NCBI RefSeq assembly: GCF_030384885.1
Contig: NZ_CP128613.1
Source: Escherichia coli
GTDB taxonomy: Bacteria > Pseudomonadota > Gammaproteobacteria > Enterobacterales > Enterobacteriaceae
Direction: 5' to 3' (one strand)
Length of the DNA: 64,000 nucleotides
The notes below the pieces were generated by a model. The model saw only the letters and a list, made by a program, of their open reading frames with translations. It was not told the DNA's origin and searched no databases. Position numbers and translations under genes: made by a program. This document shows, piece after piece, positions 7,474 to 46,682 of the stretch; position 1 is the stretch's first letter; each line of letters begins with the position of its first letter.

Positions 7474-8901
7474 CTAGCGCGACTGCTGATTATATTCATC
7501 ATCGCGTTGATAAGCTTCATCATTCGGCTGCTCCGGTACCGACCGCAGTCGATACTCTTCATCCTGGCTCACCGCTTGTTCAGCCAAATCCGGATTAATC
7601 TCGCGTTTAATTTCTACTCCTAAACCGCGAAACGCTTCTGCCTGCGCCAGCACATTTCCGCGACCTGAAGAGAGTTTTTTCATTGCCTGGCGATAGTTGT
7701 CCTGTGCTTTGTCCAGACTTTGACCAATCGCGGACATATCATCGACAAACAAGCGCATTTTGTCGTACAACTTGCTGGCGCGATCGGCTATTTTCTGGGC
7801 GTTACGACTTTGATGCTCATAGCGCCAGAGGTTGGCGATAGTGCGCAGCGCCACCAGCAGCGTGGTCGGGCTAACCAGCATGATATTGTTTTTCAACGCT
7901 TCGGTGATCAGCTCCGGCTGGCGGTCAAGCGCCAGTAAAAAAGCGGGTTCAACGGGAATAAACATCAGCACGTAATCCAGGGTTCGCAGCCCCGGCAGCT
8001 GTTGATAATCTTTGCGTCCCAGCAAACGGATATGGTTACGCACCGACGCGATATGTTCCTGTAGCGCGCTTTCGCGGGTGTAGTCGTCTTCTGCGTTGAA
8101 ATAGCGTTCATAGGCGACCAGTGTCATTTTTGCGTCGATCACCACATCTTTGCCCTGCGGCAACCGCACGATGACATCCGGCTGCATCCGCGAGCGGGCG
8201 TCATTTTCGATGCTGACCTGGGTTTCATATTCATACCCTTCACGCAGACCGGAAGCCTCCAGCACACGCGTCAATACTACCTCGCCCCAGTTGCCCTGGG
8301 TTTTATTGTCGCCTTTCAGCGCACGCGTCAGGTTGATCGCTTCCTGGGCCATTTGCGCGTTGAGCTGCTGGAGATTGCGTATTTCGTGAGTCAGGGTATG
8401 GCGTTCTTGTGCTTCTTTACCGAAACTGTCCTGAACCTGACGACGAAAACCGTCCAGTTGTTCACGTAGTGGCGACAACAGGCTGTTCAGACTCTGACGG
8501 TTTTGCTCATCAACCCGGCGATTGCTGTGCTCGAAAATACGGTTGGCGAGGTTTTCAAACTGCTCACTGAGGCGCTGTTCGCTGTTGATCATTTGGCGAA
8601 TTTTATCGTCAGCATGTTGCTGTACGGCCTCCATTCGCGTGGTGACTTCACGCAGATCCGCCTCCAGCGAGGTGTTAATGCTTTGCAGACTGCGCACTTC
8701 ATTATTGAGTAACTCGCACTCAGCACGCCAATGTTCGCTTTGGGTAATTTGTTGTTTTGCCGCACTTAACTCCGCGATCATCTCTTCACGTTCAGCGAAT
8801 TGCTCGGCTTTTTGCTGCGCATGCTGATAACTGGCAATCAGCCAGCCAATCGCCACGCTCACCAACGCAATAACTGCGTAAACCATGATTGAGATATCCA
8901 C
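7474..8901 (-). CDS. rmuC: DNA recombination protein RmuC
   Basis: ORF 7474..8994; product trimmed to a GTG start (VDISIMVYAVIALV...) giving the 475 aa RmuC length; coiled-coil-rich N-terminus. Confidence 0.85.
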   Translation of the reverse strand: MDISIMVYAVIALVSVAIGWLIASYQHAQQKAEQFAEREEMIAELSAAKQQITQSEHWRAECELLNNEVRSLQSINTSLEADLREVTTRMEAVQQHADDKIRQMINSEQRLSEQFENLANRIFEHSNRRVDEQNRQSLNSLLSPLREQLDGFRRQVQDSFGKEAQERHTLTHEIRNLQQLNAQMAQEAINLTRALKGDNKTQGNWGEVVLTRVLEASGLREGYEYETQVSIENDARSRMQPDVIVRLPQGKDVVIDAKMTLVAYERYFNAEDDYTRESALQEHIASVRNHIRLLGRKDYQQLPGLRTLDYVLMFIPVEPAFLLALDRQPELITEALKNNIMLVSPTTLLVALRTIANLWRYEHQSRNAQKIADRASKLYDKMRLFVDDMSAIGQSLDKAQDNYRQAMKKLSSGRGNVLAQAEAFRGLGVEIKREINPDLAEQAVSQDEEYRLRSVPEQPNDEAYQRDDEYNQQSR

Positions 8902-9018
8902 AACGCCTCCAGCCTCATTACTTACCCGCACAAAATAGAATTGTGCTGTACAAACGTCCAGTTTGAAAGAAGTTTCCTGCGAGGCGCTACGCAAAACGAT
9001 CCTTAATTTTTATTATTT

Positions 9019-9056
9019 TATCCCACAATATGAGACGTAGTTTATATTGTGGGATA
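9019..9056. promoter_or_regulatory. 13-bp inverted repeat (TATCCCACAATAT / ATATTGTGGGATA) in the rmuC / IclR-gene divergent intergenic region; candidate operator
   Basis: Inverted repeat read directly from the sequence, about 60 bp upstream of the IclR-family gene start. Confidence 0.4.
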
Positions 9057-9113
9057 TATCACCTTTTCCCCACGTCATTATGTGGAACACTTCAGCAATA
9101 TCATCAGGAGAAA

Positions 9114-9884
9114 CGTATGGCAGATACCTCTTCAACCACCGCTGGCGCACAAACGTTATTACGCGGGCTGGCGGTTCTTAATGCTGTTTATAACGGCTGC
9201 CATGACCTGAAAAGTATCGGCGAGTTCACCGGCACGACCCGGAGCACAACCCATCGTTTAGTCACCGTTCTGGTGGAACAACGCTACCTGCGCCACGTCC
9301 CAACGCAGGGCTACCAACTGGGCGCCAAACTGATCGAATTCGGTGCCAGAGCGCTGGAAAGCACCTCGCTGTACGAAATTGCGCTGCCCGTTTTGCAGCG
9401 TCTGGCCCGTTACACCCTGGACACCGTGCATCTGGGGATCGTTGAAGGCGACGAAGTGCTGTATCTGGAGAAGATCAACAGTCAGCGTGGGCTGGAAATG
9501 CGCTCACGCCCAGGCCATCGCATGCCACTGGCAATCACCGGCATCGGCAAGGCATTGATCCTCAACCGAACAGAAGAAGAGTGGCGCACGCTGTTTAAGA
9601 CCTGTGGTGATGAAACAAAACTGGGCACATTTATTCAGAACATGCGTCGTTATGCCGCCAGTGGTTTTGCTTTTGATCTGGAAGAGAACGAGCCGACTAT
9701 CCGTTGCGTTGCAGCGCCGGTTTACAACGCCCGGGATGAAATTGTGGCGGCTATTTCTGTCGCCAGTACCACTACGTATATGTCACTGGCGCGTCTGGAA
9801 GAACTGGCACCTTACGTCAAATCCTGTGCAGAAGAGATATCCGCTGAACTGGGCTGGGGTAAGCACGTCCGCAAAAATAAATAA
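9114..9884 (+). CDS. IclR/KdgR-family transcriptional regulator
   Basis: ORF 9030..9884; start trimmed to MADTSSTTAGAQTLLRGLAVLNAV (RBS AGGAG upstream); N-terminal HTH plus IclR-type effector domain (about 256 aa). Confidence 0.8.
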   Translation, partial: RMADTSSTTAGAQTLLRGLAVLNAVYNGCHDLKSIGEFTGTTRSTTHRLVTVLVEQRYLRHVPTQGYQLGAKLIEFGARALESTSLYEIALPVLQRLARYTLDTVHLGIVEGDEVLYLEKINSQRGLEMRSRPGHRMPLAITGIGKALILNRTEEEWRTLFKTCGDETKLGTFIQNMRRYAASGFAFDLEENEPTIRCVAAPVYNARDEIVAAISVASTTTYMSLARLEELAPYVKSCAEEISAELGWGKHVRKNK

Positions 9885-9907: not shown

Positions 9908-10912
9908 ATGTCGGGAAACACCTCATTTATTGCCCTGGACTGGGGAACGTCATCGCTTCGGGCATGGCGTTTTGGCGACTCACCAAATCCACAAGAAAAA
10001 CGTGAATTCCCGTGGGGGATCATGAAATTACCCTCCCAGGCAGCAACACGTGAGGACGCTTTCCACGATACGTTTTTACGTGTCTGCGGCGACTGGCTGG
10101 CACAATCCCCATGCCCGATTCTGGCTTGCGGCATGATCGGCAGTGCGCAAGGGTGGCAACCCGCAGCTTATTTACCTTGCCCGGTCACTCTCGAGGGTCT
10201 GGCAAAGCAGTTGACGCCTGTTATCTACCAGCAGCAGACAATGCTGCACATCATTCCCGGCGTGATTAAAGAAGGTGAAATGCCCGAAGTGATGCGTGGC
10301 GAAGAGACACAAATCTTCGGTGCTATCTCGATGGAACCGGCCCTGCAAAACGCGCTCCGCCAGGGTATGCCTGTGCTGATTGGCTTACCTGGCACACATG
10401 CGAAATGGGCGGTAGTTGAAAACAACACCATTACCGATTTTCGAACCTTTATGACAGGCGAGTTATTTGATGTTTTATCCCGCCATTCGATTCTCGGTGC
10501 CACCATGCGTTCGGGAGATGAACCGCACTGGGATGCCTTCGCCCACGGGCTGACAGCGGCACAAGAGCATCATCAGACCGGATTATTATCGACGCTGTTT
10601 TCGACCCGTTCGCGCCTGCTGACCAGTAATCTTACGCCGTCCTCACAGGGGGATTACCTTTCAGGATTACTGATAGGCCATGAATTATGCGGTCTGGCAT
10701 CCAGTTTGCTACGTGATTTACCCGCCACAACACCGATCGCCTTAATCGGTAGCGCCACTCTGAACAGCCGCTATTCACAAGCATTCAGCCACGTTTTTCC
10801 CGACAGACAGCTACACGCCATTCCTAATGCCACTGAACAGGGGTTATGGCGAATCGCCCACGCTGCCGGGCTACTCTCCACCAACGCCAGGGAATGTACT
10901 CATGCCATTTAA
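9908..10912 (+). CDS. 2-dehydro-3-deoxygalactonokinase (DgoK)-family sugar-acid kinase
   Basis: 334 aa; motifs ALDWGTSSLRAW, MRGEETQIFGA, GTHAKW...ITDFRTFMTGELF align with DgoK hallmark motifs. Confidence 0.8.
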   Translation: MSGNTSFIALDWGTSSLRAWRFGDSPNPQEKREFPWGIMKLPSQAATREDAFHDTFLRVCGDWLAQSPCPILACGMIGSAQGWQPAAYLPCPVTLEGLAKQLTPVIYQQQTMLHIIPGVIKEGEMPEVMRGEETQIFGAISMEPALQNALRQGMPVLIGLPGTHAKWAVVENNTITDFRTFMTGELFDVLSRHSILGATMRSGDEPHWDAFAHGLTAAQEHHQTGLLSTLFSTRSRLLTSNLTPSSQGDYLSGLLIGHELCGLASSLLRDLPATTPIALIGSATLNSRYSQAFSHVFPDRQLHAIPNATEQGLWRIAHAAGLLSTNARECTHAI

Positions 10913-11531
10913 TACGCTTTTGCAAAAAACCGGGTTAGTCGCCATTTTACGCGGCGTGAAACCGGATGAGATTGTCGCCATCGGTGAAAAGCTGTATGCC
11001 GCTGGATTTCGCCTGATTGAGATTCCCATGAACTCGCCGGAGCCGTTGCAAAGTATCAGTTTACTGCGCGACGCCCTGCCTAAGGACTGCCTGGTCGGAG
11101 CCGGAACGGTGCTTTCGGTGGAGCAAGTCGTCGCGGTTAAAGAGGCTGGAGGCCAGATTATCGTAATGCCGCATTGCGATACTGCGGTGATCCGTCGTGC
11201 CCGTGCGCTGGGTATGTATTGTGCGCCTGGCGTCGCTACGCCCACCGAAGCTTTTGCTGCCATTGAACATGGCGCCAATGCCATCAAGCTGTTCCCGGCT
11301 GAACAAATTACGCCTGAAGTCACCAAAGCCTGGCGTGCGGTTATTCCACAATCCGTTCCGATGTTACCGGTTGGCGGTATCACTCCAGACACAATGGCGC
11401 GTTATCTGAGCCACGGCGCAAACGGCTTTGGCCTCGGTTCTGCGCTATATCGCCCCGGCATGACGCCAGAGCAAGTCTATGAAAATGCAGTACTGTTTAT
11501 GAACGCATGGAACAATTTAAATAGCAAATAA
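10902..11531 (+). CDS. KDPGal/KDPG aldolase (DgoA/Eda-family)
   Basis: ORF 10827..11531; start trimmed to MPFNTLLQKTGLVAILRGV at 10902, overlapping the kinase stop (translational coupling); strong resemblance to DgoA. Confidence 0.8.
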   Translation: MPFNTLLQKTGLVAILRGVKPDEIVAIGEKLYAAGFRLIEIPMNSPEPLQSISLLRDALPKDCLVGAGTVLSVEQVVAVKEAGGQIIVMPHCDTAVIRRARALGMYCAPGVATPTEAFAAIEHGANAIKLFPAEQITPEVTKAWRAVIPQSVPMLPVGGITPDTMARYLSHGANGFGLGSALYRPGMTPEQVYENAVLFMNAWNNLNSK

Positions 11532-11555
11532 CTGATAAATAAGGATATAAAAGCA

Positions 11556-12530
11556 ATGATAAAACATCTTACCTTACCGAAAAAAATGGCTGCAATGGTA
11601 CTTCTTGCCGGCGCTGCCCTCAGCACTGCGCCTGTGCAGGCGGCCTCCTGGCCAACCAAACAGATCGAGTTAGTCGTACCCTACGCGGCCGGAGGCGGTA
11701 CGGATCTGGTTGCCCGTGCCTTTGCTGATGCCGCCAAAAACCATTTGCCCGTCAGCATCGGGGTTATCAATAAACCTGGCGGTGGCGGCGCTATCGGCCT
11801 GAGTGAAATCGCCGCTGCCCGCCCTAACGGTTACAAAATGGGTTTAGGCACGGTTGAACTGACCACCCTTCCCAGTCTCGGAATGGTGCGTTTTAAAACC
11901 AGCGACTTTAAACCCATTGCCCGTCTGAATGCGGATCCTGCGGCTATCACCGTCCGTGCCGATGCACCGTGGAATAGCTATGAAGAATTTATGACTTACG
12001 CCAAAGCGAATCCCGGAAAAGTACGCATTGGTAACTCAGGCACCGGAGCAATCTGGCATCTGGCGGCAGCTGCACTGGAAGACAAAACGGGCGTGAAGTT
12101 TTCTCATGTCCCATATGACGGCGCAGCCCCTGCCATTACAGGCCTGTTAGGCGGGCATATTGAAGCGGTTTCCGTAAGCCCAGGTGAAGTTATCAATCAT
12201 GTGAAAGGCGGCAAGCTGAAGACACTGGTAGTGATGGCGGATGAACGTATGAAAACCATGCCTGACGTCCCGACGTTAAAAGAGAAAGGCGTTGATCTCT
12301 CCATCGGCACCTGGCGCGGCCTGATTGTGTCGCAAAAAACGCCGCAGGATGTGGTTGATGTTCTGGCTAAGGCCGCAAAAGAGACGGCTGAAGAGCCTGC
12401 ATTCCAGGATGCTCTGCAAAAGTTGAATCTCAACTATGCATGGCTTGATGGTGCCAGCTTCCAGACCCAAATCAACGAACAGGAAAAGTACTTTGACGAG
12501 TTACTAACTCGGCTGGGCTTGAAAAAATAA
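11556..12530 (+). CDS. tctC: Tripartite tricarboxylate transporter substrate-binding protein (TctC/Bug family), periplasmic
   Basis: 324 aa with N-terminal signal peptide MIKHLTLPKKMAAMVLLAGAALSTAPVQA; TctC-like fold motifs. Confidence 0.8.
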   Translation: MIKHLTLPKKMAAMVLLAGAALSTAPVQAASWPTKQIELVVPYAAGGGTDLVARAFADAAKNHLPVSIGVINKPGGGGAIGLSEIAAARPNGYKMGLGTVELTTLPSLGMVRFKTSDFKPIARLNADPAAITVRADAPWNSYEEFMTYAKANPGKVRIGNSGTGAIWHLAAAALEDKTGVKFSHVPYDGAAPAITGLLGGHIEAVSVSPGEVINHVKGGKLKTLVVMADERMKTMPDVPTLKEKGVDLSIGTWRGLIVSQKTPQDVVDVLAKAAKETAEEPAFQDALQKLNLNYAWLDGASFQTQINEQEKYFDELLTRLGLKK

Positions 12531-12546
12531 TCCCGAGGTACGGTCG

Positions 12547-13053
12547 ATGAACACAAAACAGTCTGTTGCTCAACTCGCCGTACCGCACCGCAAGCGCTTT
12601 TCATCCACTGTGGTGGTGGCGCTGTTACTTTGTGTGGTTGCTGGCGCGGTGATAATTAATGCCGCTGATTTTCCAGCAACTGCCATTGAAACGGATCCCG
12701 GTGCAAGTGCCTTCCCTACTTTCTATGCCTGCGCTCTGATTGTGCTCGCTGTCTTACTGGTGATACGCGATCTTTTGCTGGCAAAACCAGTCCCTTGCGC
12801 CAACGCACAGGAAAAACCGGCATTCAGGAAAACGGCAACGGGAATTGCGGCAACCGCGTTTTATATTGTGGCGATGAGCTACTGCGGTTATCTCATTACT
12901 ACTCCTGTTTTCCTCATCGTCATTATGACGTTGATGGGCTACAGGCGATGGGTACTCACACCGGGTATTGCGCTGCTGTTAACGGCAATCCTCTGGTTGC
13001 TGTTTGTCGAAGCGTTACAGGTGCCATTGCCTGTCGGCACATTTTTCGAATAA
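12547..13053 (+). CDS. tctB: Tripartite tricarboxylate transporter small membrane subunit (TctB family)
   Basis: 168 aa, four hydrophobic segments; position between tctC and tctA. Confidence 0.7.
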   Translation: MNTKQSVAQLAVPHRKRFSSTVVVALLLCVVAGAVIINAADFPATAIETDPGASAFPTFYACALIVLAVLLVIRDLLLAKPVPCANAQEKPAFRKTATGIAATAFYIVAMSYCGYLITTPVFLIVIMTLMGYRRWVLTPGIALLLTAILWLLFVEALQVPLPVGTFFE

Positions 13054-13065
13054 CAGGGGCCTGCA

Positions 13066-14556
13066 ATGTTTGAAAGTGAACTTTTAACTCAGGGGTTTTC
13101 GACATTACTCAGTAATCCTCAGGCGCTGCTGTTTGCCACGTTTGGAGTGATACTGGGTATTATGATTGGCGCTCTGCCTGGCCTGACAGCGACCATGGGT
13201 GTGGCGATTTTGCTGCCTTTCACCTACGGCATGGAGCCTGTTTCTGGCTTGTTGATGATTTGCGGTGTCTTTTTTGGTGGTGTGTATGGTGGTTCTATCA
13301 CCGCAATTTTGCTCAAAATTCCCGGTACGCCTGCCGCCGCTGCCACCGCCATTGACGGTTATGAGTTAACGAAGCAGGGAAAAGCCGGGCTGGCATTAAG
13401 TGCCGCCACGTTCTCTTCTTTTAGCGGTGGAACGCTCAGCATTATCGTATTGATGTTTCTCTCTCCGGTACTTGCCAGTTGGGCGTTGAAATTTAGTGCC
13501 TCGGAGTCCTTCGCCCTGGCAACCTTCGGACTAAGTATTATTGCCAGTATTTCCGGTGAGTCACTGATTAAAGGGCTGATTGCCGGGGTTGGCGGATTAC
13601 TGATCGCAACGATAGGCCTCGATCCGATGGGCGGTTTTCCACGCTTTACGGGCGGGTTTGTGGAACTGATGAATGTGCCATTTATCCCGGTGATGATTGG
13701 TCTGTTTGCTGCTTCAGAAGCGTTCCGTTCTATGGAACAAAATCAGCATATTCGTCAGAGCGCGAACGTGGCTATCGGCAGTCTGTTACTGCCCTGGCAA
13801 ACGCTACGCCGCATCGCATTAACCATTTTGCGCTCATCAGGATTAGGGGTTTTTATCGGCATGATCCCCGGTGCGGGGGCAGATATTGCAGCTTTTGTTG
13901 CCTATAACGAAACTCGTCGTTTCAGTAAGACGCCTGAAAACTTTGGTAAGGGTGAGATTAAGGCGGTGGCCTCCTGTGAGGCAGGCGCGAATGGCTGCAC
14001 CGGTGGCGCATTGTTACCTATGCTGACGTTGGGGATCCCAGGCGATGCGGTAACTGCCATCATGCTGGGCGCGTTAACGTTACAAGGGATGCAGCCAGGC
14101 CCACTGATGTTTACCGACCACGGCGATATGGTTTATACGCTGTTTGTCGGCATGATCTTTTGTTACTTCATGCTGCTAGTTCTTGGACTGCTCTCTTTGA
14201 AAGTCATCGGTAACGTGGTGAAGATCCCCGGCAATATTCTCACGCCGATGATCCTCGCACTTTGTGTGGTCGGGACTTATGCGTTGAACAATAGCCTGTT
14301 TGATGTTGGCATTATGCTGATTGCAGGCGTGGTGGGCTATTTCATGCAAAAAGGGGGGTATCCGGCATCACCCGTAGTGCTGGCATTGATTATGGGGCCA
14401 ATGGCGGAAAGTAATTTTCGCCGTGCGCTGTCGCTTTCTGGTGGGTCACTCGACTTTCTGTATACCCGACCGATAACCCTGGCATTGCTGACACTGGCAG
14501 CCTTTACGCTACTGACGCCAATAATACGCAAAATTATGCGCTTACGGCGTCAGTAA
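13066..14556 (+). CDS. tctA: Tripartite tricarboxylate transporter large permease (TctA family)
   Basis: 496 aa polytopic membrane protein; TctA-like glycine-rich hydrophobic segments. Confidence 0.85.
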   Translation: MFESELLTQGFSTLLSNPQALLFATFGVILGIMIGALPGLTATMGVAILLPFTYGMEPVSGLLMICGVFFGGVYGGSITAILLKIPGTPAAAATAIDGYELTKQGKAGLALSAATFSSFSGGTLSIIVLMFLSPVLASWALKFSASESFALATFGLSIIASISGESLIKGLIAGVGGLLIATIGLDPMGGFPRFTGGFVELMNVPFIPVMIGLFAASEAFRSMEQNQHIRQSANVAIGSLLLPWQTLRRIALTILRSSGLGVFIGMIPGAGADIAAFVAYNETRRFSKTPENFGKGEIKAVASCEAGANGCTGGALLPMLTLGIPGDAVTAIMLGALTLQGMQPGPLMFTDHGDMVYTLFVGMIFCYFMLLVLGLLSLKVIGNVVKIPGNILTPMILALCVVGTYALNNSLFDVGIMLIAGVVGYFMQKGGYPASPVVLALIMGPMAESNFRRALSLSGGSLDFLYTRPITLALLTLAAFTLLTPIIRKIMRLRRQ

Positions 14557-14610
14557 TTGATATCGCTCCCCGACGTTGGGGAGTATGAGACTGATGACAA
14601 ACGCTAAATT

Positions 14611-14710
14611 GCCTGATGCGCTGCGCTTATCAGGCCTACCACAGAAATGCAATATATTGAATTTGCATGCTTTTGTAGGCCGGGTAAGGCGATCACGCCG
14701 CATCCGGCAT
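14611..14710. repeat. REP/BIME cluster (two inverted REP units: GCCTGATGCGCTGCGCTTATCAGGCCTAC ... GTAGGCCGGGTAAGGCGATCACGCCGCATCCGGCA)
   Basis: Characteristic enterobacterial REP palindromes read from the sequence. Confidence 0.6.
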
Positions 14711-14741
14711 GAACAAAGCACACGTTAACAACAATCGGAAT

Positions 14742-14768
14742 GCTCCCCTAAGCCAGGGAGCTTTTTTT
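14742..14768 (+). terminator. Hairpin (GCTCCC..GGGAGC) followed by T7 run; rho-independent terminator between the tct operon and the 3' end of udp
   Basis: Stem-loop plus U-tract on the + strand, immediately abutting the udp stop. Confidence 0.4.
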
Positions 14769-15531
14769 ATTTCAGCAGACGACGCGCCGCTTCCACCACG
14801 ATTTTCACCGCCTGGCTTTCGGTTTGTTTCATCGTCTCAGCATTCGGGATCTCTTGTTGGGTACGATTGACGATAACGCCCGCCACCATACCGGCACGAA
14901 GGCCCTGGCTTGCACACATGGTCAGCAGGGTTGCAGATTCCATTTCATAGTTCATTACGCCCATCGCCTGCCACTCTTCCATAGAACCTTTAAAGTGACG
15001 GACTACGCGACCAGAGTAAGTATCGTAACGTTCCTGACCCGGGTAGAAGGTATCAGAAGAAGCCGTCACACCAACGTGAGTGGTGGCACCAATTGACTTC
15101 GCCGCTTCAACCAGCGCGGTCGTACATTCGAAATCTGCGACAGCCGGGAACTCCAGCGGAGCGAAGTGCAGGCTCGCGCCATCCAGACGAACAGACGCCG
15201 TGGTCACCAGCACATCGCCGACATTGATATGCGGCTGGATAGCGCCCGTTGTACCGATACGCAGGAAGGTGCGAATGCCCAGCTGTGCCAGCTCTTCAAC
15301 CGCAATAGAGGTAGACGGGCCGCCGATACCGGTAGAGCAGACGATAACAGGTTTACCATCCAGCTCTGCACGCCAGGTGGTGAATTCGCGGTGAGATGCC
15401 AGCTTAACCGGCTTATCCATCAGCGCGGCGATCTTTTCCACACGATCCGGGTCGCCAGGGACGATGGCAAGCGTAGCCCCTTGTAAATCGTTTTTAGTGA
15501 GGCCGAGATGAAAAACATCAGACTTGGACAT
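14767..15531 (-). CDS. udp: Uridine phosphorylase
   Basis: ORF 14767..15537; start trimmed to [31 protein letters not shown] (253 aa). Confidence 0.95.
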
Positions 15532-15603
15532 ATACAACTCCTCTGTGAATCGGTTTAGTCAGAAGAAGCAAAAAGACACTTTACCGAAGGGTTTAACATT
15601 TTT

Positions 15604-15619
15604 TCGTGACACTCATCAC
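15604..15619. promoter_or_regulatory. CRP-like site (GTGA-N6-TCAC) in the udp promoter region, promoter-proximal
   Basis: cGTGAcactcaTCACc; spaced about 54 bp from the second site, consistent with the known tandem CRP arrangement of the udp promoter. Confidence 0.5.
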
Positions 15620-15657
15620 CTTGATGCAAATGCGTTGCATAAATTTACCCAGCAAAA

Positions 15658-15673
15658 GTGATGCGAATCACAT
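15658..15673. promoter_or_regulatory. CRP-like site in the udp promoter region, promoter-distal
   Basis: Reverse complement reads aTGTGAttcgcaTCAC. Confidence 0.5.
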
Positions 15674-15792
15674 AAATCACTCTTCATTCTGCATGACTGC
15701 ATAAAAGATGAGCCGATTCAGGCAATGTGATTTGTTGCATGCTGACTATAGTTAACATTGCGCAACATTTTTATAAGGGTACGGAGAATACC

Positions 15793-16996: not shown

Positions 16997-18145
16997 ATGA
17001 GTGATATTATCTACCTGACCATAACCGGAGAACAACACGGATGTATTTCCTCTCGTTGTGGAACGAGCACATCAATAGGTAATCGCTGGCAGATTGGTCA
17101 TGAAGATGAAATCTTCGCATTCTCGCTCTCTAATAGTATTACGAATACAGGAAAAGGGTCACATTTGCATGGCCTTAGTTTCTGTAAGTTGATTGACAAA
17201 AGCTCCCCGTTACTTATTAACGCTATTAACAATAACGAGCAGTTGTTCATGGAGTTTGACTTCTATCGGATCAATAGATTTGGTCGATGGGAGAAATATT
17301 ACAACATTCAACTCCGCGGCGCGCTCTTATCAGCAATCAATCACCTGTTTACGGAGAACAATCTGGATACAGAAACCATCACTGTCAGTTATGAATATAT
17401 ACTCTCCAGGCATCTGATTGCTAATACTGAATTTAGTTATTTGGCATTTCCCGATAACTACAATCGTCTGTTTATACCACGGCCAAAAACTAAAGATGAT
17501 AATGGCCTCAAAACACTCAATAGTAAAGCTGTTGGCAGACTGCTTGCTGCTGGCGGCATATACAATGGGAATATCGAAGGATTCAGGGAAACAGCAAACA
17601 AGTTGGGGGGAGATGCACCTGCTGGTTACGATCAAGTTATGGATAACAAAGGGTTACTCATCGCTGGTGCTTCAATAGTTGCTGGAGCAGTTCTGGGGAG
17701 AATGAGACTCCCTGATTTGGAATCACTTGAGCATTTCGGAGCCAGAGGAGCAGTATCAGGAAGACCATTTAATCCCGACCTTGCCGGTGGTCCAATAGAA
17801 AATCTGACGACAGATGGCGTAACAATCAACAGGGAAGGTATCGCTATTGTTGAAAAACACATAGCCAGATTTGGTCATGACCCTGTAAATGAAGTGATGA
17901 TCAATAGACTGAAAGACATTGAGAAAGGAAAAATCCCCCCAGAACAAGTAGATCTTAACTTCTATACTCATGAATGTCGGGAATATCAGCGTTACTGTAA
18001 TCTTGGTTGGGAAACAGGACAACCTGATGGTGACGCAGGCTATGCACTCTGGAATCATACGCATACTGCTACTCTAGAAGATTATAAACTTAAGGGAGAA
18101 CTTAATGACTTATACCACCAGGACGCACTTGACTATGATAACTGA
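16997..18145 (+). CDS. Hcp (T6SS tube protein TssD) N-terminal domain fused to a C-terminal extension of unknown function, Hcp-ET-like; not associated with a T6SS gene cluster
   Basis: 382 aa; residues 1-155 carry the Hcp hallmark ...HGLSFCKLIDKSSPLLINAINNNEQLFMEFDFYRI...; residues about 156-382 are an extension with no Hcp counterpart; RBS AAGGA upstream; AT-rich. Confidence 0.75.
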   Translation: MSDIIYLTITGEQHGCISSRCGTSTSIGNRWQIGHEDEIFAFSLSNSITNTGKGSHLHGLSFCKLIDKSSPLLINAINNNEQLFMEFDFYRINRFGRWEKYYNIQLRGALLSAINHLFTENNLDTETITVSYEYILSRHLIANTEFSYLAFPDNYNRLFIPRPKTKDDNGLKTLNSKAVGRLLAAGGIYNGNIEGFRETANKLGGDAPAGYDQVMDNKGLLIAGASIVAGAVLGRMRLPDLESLEHFGARGAVSGRPFNPDLAGGPIENLTTDGVTINREGIAIVEKHIARFGHDPVNEVMINRLKDIEKGKIPPEQVDLNFYTHECREYQRYCNLGWETGQPDGDAGYALWNHTHTATLEDYKLKGELNDLYHQDALDYDN

Positions 18146-34672: not shown

Positions 34673-34681
34673 GGTGCTGAT

Positions 34682-34712
34682 GCGGGATGCGGTGTGGCGC
34701 ACCGCATCCCGC
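34682..34712. terminator. Strong 13-bp-stem hairpin (GCGGGATGCGGTG-TGGCG-CACCGCATCCCGC) between the convergent DUF62 gene and uvrD; likely bidirectional terminator
   Basis: Perfect inverted repeat read from the sequence between two convergent stop codons. Confidence 0.55.
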
Positions 34713-34726
34713 AACGGAATCGTAAA

Positions 34727-46296: not shown

Positions 46297-46682
46297 GACG
46301 TATCGCCTGATTTGCTACCCGTCATGACTGTGATTCCGCCAACATCAACGGTAACACGCGGCATTCGGGATATTTCGTATGTCAAAGGTAACCGTTACCA
46401 CTTTTCGCGCCTGGTTTTTTTAGTTTCACGACGAAAAAATGGTCTAAAACGTGATCAATTTAACACCTTGCTGATTGACCGTAAAGAAAGATGCGCTACA
46501 TACAAGTGTAGCACCGTTTATTCTCTGTAAATTCCTTATTACGACGGCGTGAAACGCCTGTCAGGATCCACTGCCAGACCTCATTTTACGGTTTGCGCAG
46601 GCGTCTACGTTTCACCACAACACTGACATCGCTCTGGCAAGGATGTTAGGATGGACCACGGATGATAATGACGGTAACAAGC

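Follow-up and report, generated by a model that had tools for sequence, protein, structure and literature searches.

A perfect inverted repeat of 38 bp lies between two divergent genes, rmuC on the minus strand (ATG at 8886) and a gene for an IclR-family regulator (ATG at 9117). As judged from sequence comparison, its symmetry is very probably that of an operator with two boxes in tandem, to which the regulator would bind ahead of its own gene. The repeat is part of a 64-kb stretch of Escherichia coli DNA that is 100% identical to strain 2013C-4282, analysed as a whole and referred to here as the window. Identified from the sequence and by a repeat search, its two arms, TATCCCACAATAT (9019–9031) and ATATTGTGGGATA (9044–9056), are complementary at 13 of 13 positions and enclose a 12-nt spacer, with the right arm ending 60 nt before the regulator ATG. 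An earlier note on this DNA had described half-sites with an N12 spacer, located in the divergent rmuC/IclR-gene region about 60 bp before the regulator start, and both the arms and their location are as it claimed. It had also proposed the repeat as a candidate operator of the adjacent regulator, a prediction supported here by a motif shared across genera, by the ranking of PWM scores, by an invariant recognition helix and by the lack of hairpin covariation. The operator unit itself has to be redrawn: the two strong outer half-sites are seen, but the functional unit appears to be a pair of adjacent 15-bp boxes and not the 13-N12-13 repeat.

Symmetry of this extent is rare. Across 60 first-order Markov simulations of the 64-kb window, perfect inverted repeats with 13-nt arms and no more than 30 nt between them numbered 0.07 per 64 kb, and three of the 60 simulations had any. 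The real window has two perfect inverted repeats with arms of at least 13 nt, the one at 9019–9056 and one other at 34681–34713. The latter is G+C-rich, with 14-nt arms (TGCGGGATGCGGTG and CACCGCATCCCGCA) and a 5-nt loop; located about 10 nt past a TAA triplet, it resembles a hairpin of the terminator or REP type but lacks a clear T-run.

The two boxes, together with the neighbouring elements and the genes downstream, are listed in Table 1. Their centres, at 9028 and 9047, are 19 bp apart and lie 89 and 70 nt before the ATG. In E. coli the outer half-sites are strong (TCCCACA and TGTGGGA) and the inner ones weak (GAGA, and GTTT instead of TCCC); owing to the degeneracy of the inner half-sites, the site looks like one long 13-N12-13 repeat, and the 13-nt arms are complementary because both match one motif in opposite orientation. 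On alignment of the Escherichia sequences the arms, the GAGA (which is invariant) and the GTTT are conserved, and within the repeat only 9036–9039 vary freely, which is what one would expect of a linker separating two boxes contacted by protein. The core of the right arm (9044–9054) is invariant in 7 of 7 aligned Escherichia sequences, the last two bases of the arm differing in E. whittamii and E1V33. A PWM for Box 1 derived from other genera places 9021–9035 at the top of the 64-kb window (15.8 bits, with the next unrelated site at 10.2), and a PWM for Box 2 constructed without E. coli does the same for 9040–9054 (20.9 versus 14.7 bits). With centres about two helical turns apart, two dimers of one tetramer would share one face of the DNA, and the regulator is proposed to bind in this way, as a tetramer with one dimer on each box.

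Table 1 Features of the regulator control region and of the genes that it precedes (positions in the window).
Feature	Position	Strand	Remarks
A/T-rich tract TTAATTTTTATTATTTT	9003–9019		Between the K-12 homology breakpoint (~8996/8997) and Box 1; varies among Escherichia
Left arm TATCCCACAATAT	9019–9031		Contains the strong outer half-site of Box 1; TCCCAC core kept across genera
Box 1, TCCC-ACAATAT-GAGA (TCCCACAATATGAGA)	9021–9035	+	15-bp imperfect palindrome; proposed site of one regulator dimer
Inter-box linker	9036–9039		CGTA here; TGGA, TGAA, CAGA, CTGT and CTGA in other Escherichia
Box 2, GTTT-ATATTGT-GGGA (GTTTATATTGTGGGA)	9040–9054	+	Degenerate palindrome; proposed site of the second dimer
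Right arm ATATTGTGGGATA	9044–9056		Includes Box 2's strong outer half-site, as well as TGTGG, the upstream half of the CRP-like site
CRP-like 22-bp site TATTGTGGGATATATCACCTTT, TGTGG-GATATA-TCACC	9045–9066		Centre 9055/9056; overlaps the outer half of Box 2
Candidate −10 hexamer AACACT	9086–9091	+	Of the putative class II CRP-dependent promoter; 3/6 bases match
IclR-family regulator gene, 255 aa	9117–9884	+	First gene of the operon; Shine-Dalgarno AGGAG at 9106–9110
2-Dehydro-3-deoxygalactonokinase-like (dgoK-like) gene	9908–10912	+	
2-Dehydro-3-deoxy-6-phosphogalactonate aldolase (dgoA-like) gene	10902–11531	+	
tctC	11556–12530	+	
tctB	12547–13053	+	
tctA	13066–14556	+	

At least ten genera have the same motif at the equivalent position, ahead of orthologous regulator/dgoK/dgoA clusters, and a two-box site accompanies every regulator ortholog examined, with a box spacing of 19–20 bp in the orthologs. 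Most genera have a good palindrome, TCCCACATATnGGGA, as Box 1; Box 2, 19–20 bp on, is weaker, with the form (G/T)(T/C)TT-N7-GGGA. Relatives read TCCCAC-ATA-TAGGGA, where Box 1 of E. coli has one mismatch in the inner half; T, C, C and G are invariant at the core of the alignment. Sharing this layout at the rmuC or ubiE to udp locus are E. whittamii, Escherichia sp. E1V33, Phytobacter (with ubiE as the called upstream neighbour of the cluster), Pseudocitrobacter and three Klebsiella species, as well as a further enterobacterium with a regulator that is 72% identical. A paralogous type of cluster, present in Citrobacter amalonaticus, Serratia odorifera and two further contigs, is preceded by the same two boxes, as is the cluster of Brenneria tiliae. 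Encoded after tctA in the paralogous cluster is a second IclR-family protein, and it is this one to which the E. coli regulator is more closely related (60–64% identity); the two-box site is located upstream of the first IclR-family gene.

Outside the enterobacteria, a Pseudomonas species encodes a regulator 58% identical to that of E. coli, 4 kb from a dgoK-dgoA-dgoD-MFS operon. Box 1 in the promoter of this operon is the very 15-mer seen in E. coli, TCCCACAATATGAGA, and Box 2 follows at 20 bp. The outer half-site of the Pseudomonas Box 2, TTGAGA, is at the same time the −35 element of a 10/12 sigma-70 match (TTGAGA-18-TATAGT), so that Box 2 on the −35 hexamer gives a classic repressor geometry. 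The Burkholderia ortholog has the boxes in a weak version only and is left out of the argument. Matching the persistence of the motif is that of the recognition helix, (R/K)STTHRL, which is nearly invariant among the orthologous regulators, S, T, H, R and L being the same in all of them.

The boxes belong to a recognizable class. Motifs of the IclR family have the form GKTYCRYW3-4RYGRAMC (Suvorova and Gelfand 2021, PMC8222616), and tandem palindromes with centres 18–22 nt apart, described in 94 orthologous groups, are explained there by tetramers whose two dimers bind the same face of the DNA. Three marks of the tandem group 1 sites of that study are present, namely the box palindrome, a second box at 18–22 nt and a position next to a co-inherited IclR-family gene. 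The likeness to group 1 operators extends to the 15–17-bp palindrome with a YCRY...RYGR core and an A/T centre (WTTYCRY-W3-RYGRAAW as published, ATCCCAC-ATA-TAGGGAT in the relatives here) and to the tandem arrangement, with centres 19–20 bp apart upstream of the regulator's own cluster. The differences are the third base of the half-site, which is C (TCCC) instead of T (TTYC), and the inner half-sites, both of which are degenerate in E. coli. At least one group in the supplement of the same paper regulates dgoK, the kdgR/dgoR group of alphaproteobacteria, whose motif is GTT-11-AAC. Repressors of the IclR family are typically tetrameric when bound to DNA, with ligand favouring a non-binding dimer (PMC5814911).

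The regulation proposed here is in this respect conventional, the IclR-type tandem operator being of a kind already catalogued by comparative genomics. TtgV, as a dimer of dimers, is said to bind about 35–42 bp containing two adjacent imperfect palindromes and to be released by its effector. The present site likewise consists of two adjacent imperfect palindromes for a proposed dimer of dimers, and effector release is proposed here too; the TtgV operator, however, covers the −10 and −35 elements of its target promoter, whereas the present boxes are upstream of the inferred promoter and overlap the CRP site.

An inverted repeat of this length may also owe its symmetry to the nucleic acid itself, as a transcript-end hairpin, a 5′-UTR stem-loop or a cruciform, and not to a bound protein; a transcript-end hairpin was one of the outcomes that the earlier note had named as speaking against an operator. 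As RNA, the repeat would fold with −20.3 kcal/mol (z = −5.3) on the plus strand and −16.1 kcal/mol (z = −3.5) on the minus strand, and a promoter-like match on the minus strand (9104–9077) could transcribe through the repeat. Against this, no gene ends here on either strand, the stem is A/T-rich and is followed by no U-tract, the terminator scan makes no call, and the inferred start site is downstream of the repeat; Rfam gave no match above threshold, only two sub-threshold chance matches. Changes in the arms are uncompensated (C to T in ST131/Eco889 and A to T in SCPM-O-B-8794, left arm), and the decayed locus of strain HS-02 has a 1-nt deletion in one arm only. Over the 13 pairs in 18 aligned sequences, 67.5% of cells pair, compared with 66.9% in column shuffles (a level reached by 210 of 500 shuffles), and the covariation score of 0.130 compares with 0.124 after shuffling, with no excess of compensatory changes. 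The other genera lose the complementarity of the 13-nt outer arms and keep the box motif. Uncompensated arm changes and covariation equal to the shuffled control argue for a protein site, and we consider a hairpin extremely improbable.

No more credible is a relic of the arrival of the accessory segment, for instance a site of recombination or one of the terminal repeats of a small mobile element. The repeat is only about 22 bp inside the end of K-12 homology and the cluster occurs in just 27% of complete E. coli genomes, both of which would suit such an origin. Yet a 156-nt region is present once per genome in 1456 of 1456 carriers, the other end of the segment (14557–14770) has REP-like sequences and a terminator in place of a matching copy, and the cluster contains no integrase or transposase. 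The same boxes are also found before dgoK clusters in unrelated contexts (Brenneria, Pseudomonas, Citrobacter and Serratia), and at least five genera have the cluster at one and the same locus. As a single copy in the window, the repeat does not have the character of a dispersed element of the repetitive extragenic or MITE type. A likeness to a DnaA box (TTATCCCACA compared with TTATCCACA) was discarded by eye, as an extra C breaks the register.

Sharing bases with Box 2 is a CRP-like site, of which 8 of 10 core bases (TGTGG-N6-TCACC) match TGTGA-N6-TCACA. Its CRP-consensus score, which comes from an ad hoc consensus weighting and not from a curated matrix, is the second best in the window; ranked first and fourth are two sites that served as a positive control, located before the CRP-regulated gene udp. 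These two strong sites, within 15602–15675 and 52 bp apart, fit the tandem-CRP layout of CytR-regulated promoters, and the CRP-like site ranked third in the window is at 46447–46468 (AAACGTGATCAATTTAACACCT). In all enterobacterial orthologs a TGTG-N6-TCAC element follows right after Box 2 and is the best CRP-like site of each, and in clusters of the same type it is 60–62 nt from the ATG. The site at 9045–9066 is therefore one that we regard as probably genuine, on the strength of score and conservation.

The presence of this site raises the question of whether the adjacent regulator binds the repeat at all, or whether another factor alone, such as CRP or a nucleoid protein, does so. The overlap of the right arm with a high-scoring CRP-like site and the A/T-rich character of the region would agree with this, but the left arm with Box 1 has no CRP-like partner half-site, and Box 1 is kept in Pseudomonas, where the CRP-like element is absent. 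The motif, moreover, is found strictly together with regulators of this orthologous group, and these have an invariant recognition helix. Binding by another factor alone is thus very unlikely, and the tandem operator of the adjacent regulator is the reading that we retain.

Downstream of the CRP-like site, a hexamer with A2 and T6 lies 30–35 nt past the centre of the site in all orthologs (AATACT, CAGAAT, CAAAAT and others), with a weak likeness to a −10 element. From this spacing we propose a class II CRP-dependent promoter, a type with the CRP site centred near −41.5 and the −10 hexamer about 30 nt past that centre; transcription would begin near 9097–9098 and give a 19-nt leader. A promoter inside the operator (ATCCCA-17-TATATT) reaches a similar simple-PWM score and was ranked lower, because the conserved CRP-like site would then sit on the start site. 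The earlier note had remarked that palindromes bound by IclR-family proteins typically overlap the proteins' own promoters; the present one is in the regulator's control region, but it probably stays clear of the core promoter hexamers, just upstream of the CRP-like site and overlapping it. On the minus strand, 9077–9104 contains a sigma-70-like match towards rmuC (ATGATA-16-CATAAT, 9/12) that may have arisen by chance; if it is a real promoter, transcription from it would pass through the operator.

In the regulation that we propose, CRP bound at 9045–9066 would drive the class II promoter of a six-gene operon (regulator, dgoK-like, dgoA-like and tctCBA). As long as inducer is absent, both boxes would be filled by the regulator, leaving no room for CRP or for the C-terminal domain of the RNA polymerase alpha subunit, so that the operon, and with it the regulator's own gene, would be repressed. 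A sugar-acid effector, likely to be 2-keto-3-deoxygalactonate or D-galactonate, would then release the regulator. Taken whole, this model of a tandem two-box operator with CRP-exclusion repression of its own operon, for which tetramer binding, repressor role, mechanism, start site and effector are all predicted, is in our judgement likely to be right. For repression by CRP exclusion as such, we see the case as evenly poised. Box 2 overlaps the CRP-like site in Escherichia and merely abuts it in other genera, where the site begins 2–4 nt past the box, and exclusion may consequently not hold generally.

This difference may have a history. Tentatively, and with more doubt than belief, we suggest that an 8-bp shift in Escherichia relative to the other genera fused the outer half-site of the regulator with the upstream half-site of CRP, leaving TTGTGGGA (9047–9054) to be read by two proteins. 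A double constraint on the fused half-site would explain the invariant 9044–9054 core as against the drifting left arm. If the fusion is true, a layout of adjacent sites has been turned into a switch of direct competition between regulator and CRP, and the perfect 13-bp symmetry is an incidental product.

The same regulator on both boxes, about 50–70 bp before the start, could conversely recruit RNA polymerase or aid CRP when the sugar-acid effector is present. PobR, PcaU and MhpR are IclR-family activators, and the BhcR and PcaR/PcaU families contain activators. By NCBIfam the present regulator has similarity to BhcR and to the PcaR/PcaU/PobR subfamily; its boxes are upstream of the inferred promoter and not on the −10 element or the start, the interval of 44–77 bp before the start is also one where activators bind, and Box 2 in most genera abuts rather than overlaps the CRP-like site. 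Three-box sites are known for PcaU-like activators (PMC8222616). In Escherichia, however, Box 2 and the CRP core have TGTGG (9048–9052) in common, making joint binding hardly possible, and the offset from operator to CRP-like site differs by about 8 bp between Escherichia and the other genera, a difference that should be incompatible with an activator making fixed contacts. The −35 hexamer of the Pseudomonas promoter is covered by Box 2. The regulator is also the first gene of its operon, as in the repressor-controlled core operon dgoRKADT. An activator or co-activator role is for these reasons unlikely, and repression is the role that we favour.

The six genes are separated by gaps of 12–24 nt or overlap, which suggests one operon with one control region, and the regulator gene and the five genes downstream (9908–14556) probably form a single transcription unit. 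Matches of the regulator to the NCBIfam models for BhcR, KdgR, PcaR/PcaU and IclR are all below the equivalog cut-offs (for KdgR, 126 bits against a cut-off of 275), and its nearest PDB relatives are IclR-family structures, with E-values of 1e-22 or weaker. Literature searches on this E. coli cluster and its regulator found nothing specific.

The core D-galactonate operon of E. coli, dgoRKADT, has the gene for the GntR-family repressor DgoR in first place, and is CRP-dependent and responsive to sugar acid. The accessory operon resembles it in that the regulator gene comes first and in that a 2-dehydro-3-deoxygalactonokinase, an aldolase and a transporter are encoded. The two are unlike in the family of the regulator (GntR in the core operon, IclR in the accessory one), in the operator sequence, in the transporter (the MFS protein DgoT as opposed to TctCBA) and in the dehydratase, which the accessory cluster lacks, and the IclR-type boxes are absent upstream of dgoR. 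With a kinase and an aldolase and no dehydratase (dgoD), the accessory cluster may serve a 2-keto-3-deoxy sugar acid that is taken up directly, or may rely on the core DgoD.

The combination of an IclR-family sugar-acid repressor and CRP in one promoter region has a parallel in the pectinolysis promoters of Dickeya, where the repressor KdgR and CRP bind to adjacent or overlapping sites. The KdgR box, RWWGAAACGNCGTTTCAKKA (PMC8222616, Table 1), is however a motif of a different type, belonging to group 2. In the alphaproteobacterium Salinivirga fredricksonii HL-109, a predicted IclR-family 'GalR' is associated with dgoK and a TTT transporter, with D-galactonate as the proposed substrate and effector (PMC5507952). 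As far as that account goes, the genes associated (IclR-family regulator, dgoK and TTT-family transporter) are the same as here; the likeness is one of gene association alone, the HL-109 regulator being an alphaproteobacterial prediction for which the part of the source consulted gives no operator.

Between rmuC and udp, the six-gene cluster is present in 1456 of 5426 complete E. coli genomes (27%), once in each. Among the carriers are extraintestinal pathogenic lineages (536 and ST131) and E. coli B, a derivative of which has the cluster with the perfect repeat, so that experiments could be done in a standard laboratory lineage. K-12 is without the cluster and has udp directly before rmuC; homology with its udp-rmuC spacer ends at ~8996/8997, about 22 bp from the repeat. 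The occupation of the same locus in at least five genera points to an old, repeatedly lost locus rather than to a recent insertion. An example of such loss is E. coli HS-02, in which the cluster is a decayed remnant with a control region that is 84% identical and has indels, no annotated regulator gene and a truncated udp.

About a quarter of complete E. coli genomes carry this uncharacterised accessory operon, for which the repeat offers a concrete candidate control region. Reporter fusions built on the operator and its likely CRP dependence could be used to find the inducing sugar acid. Once known, the inducer would also show what one of the few TTT-family transporters of E. coli takes up.

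The operator appears to stand alone in the DNA that was scanned. In the window, the half-site with up to two mismatches has no copy beyond the two arms, and with up to three mismatches there are 18 matches for 13.4 expected, all of them except the two arms at exactly three. The earlier note had suggested a search for the same motif upstream of the kinase and tctC genes, and this gave no match there. The PWM scan of the window brought up no other tandem site. Nor did one emerge from 50 kb of the same strain's DNA surrounding the core dgoRKADT operon; upstream of dgoR, Box 1 scores reach 3.1 bits at best. Within the window and these 50 kb, the regulator is predicted to control only its own operon.

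Beyond the last gene of the operon, the segment from the tctA stop to the udp stop (14557–14770) contains REP/BIME-like sequences, for example GCCTGATGCGCTGCGCTTATCAGGCCTAC and GTAGGCCGGGTAAGGCG...GCATCCGGCA, and a udp terminator hairpin that differs from that of K-12. Further along the window, between ysgA and metE, is a frameshifted pseudogene of tssD (type VI secretion tube protein), at about 16997–18144.
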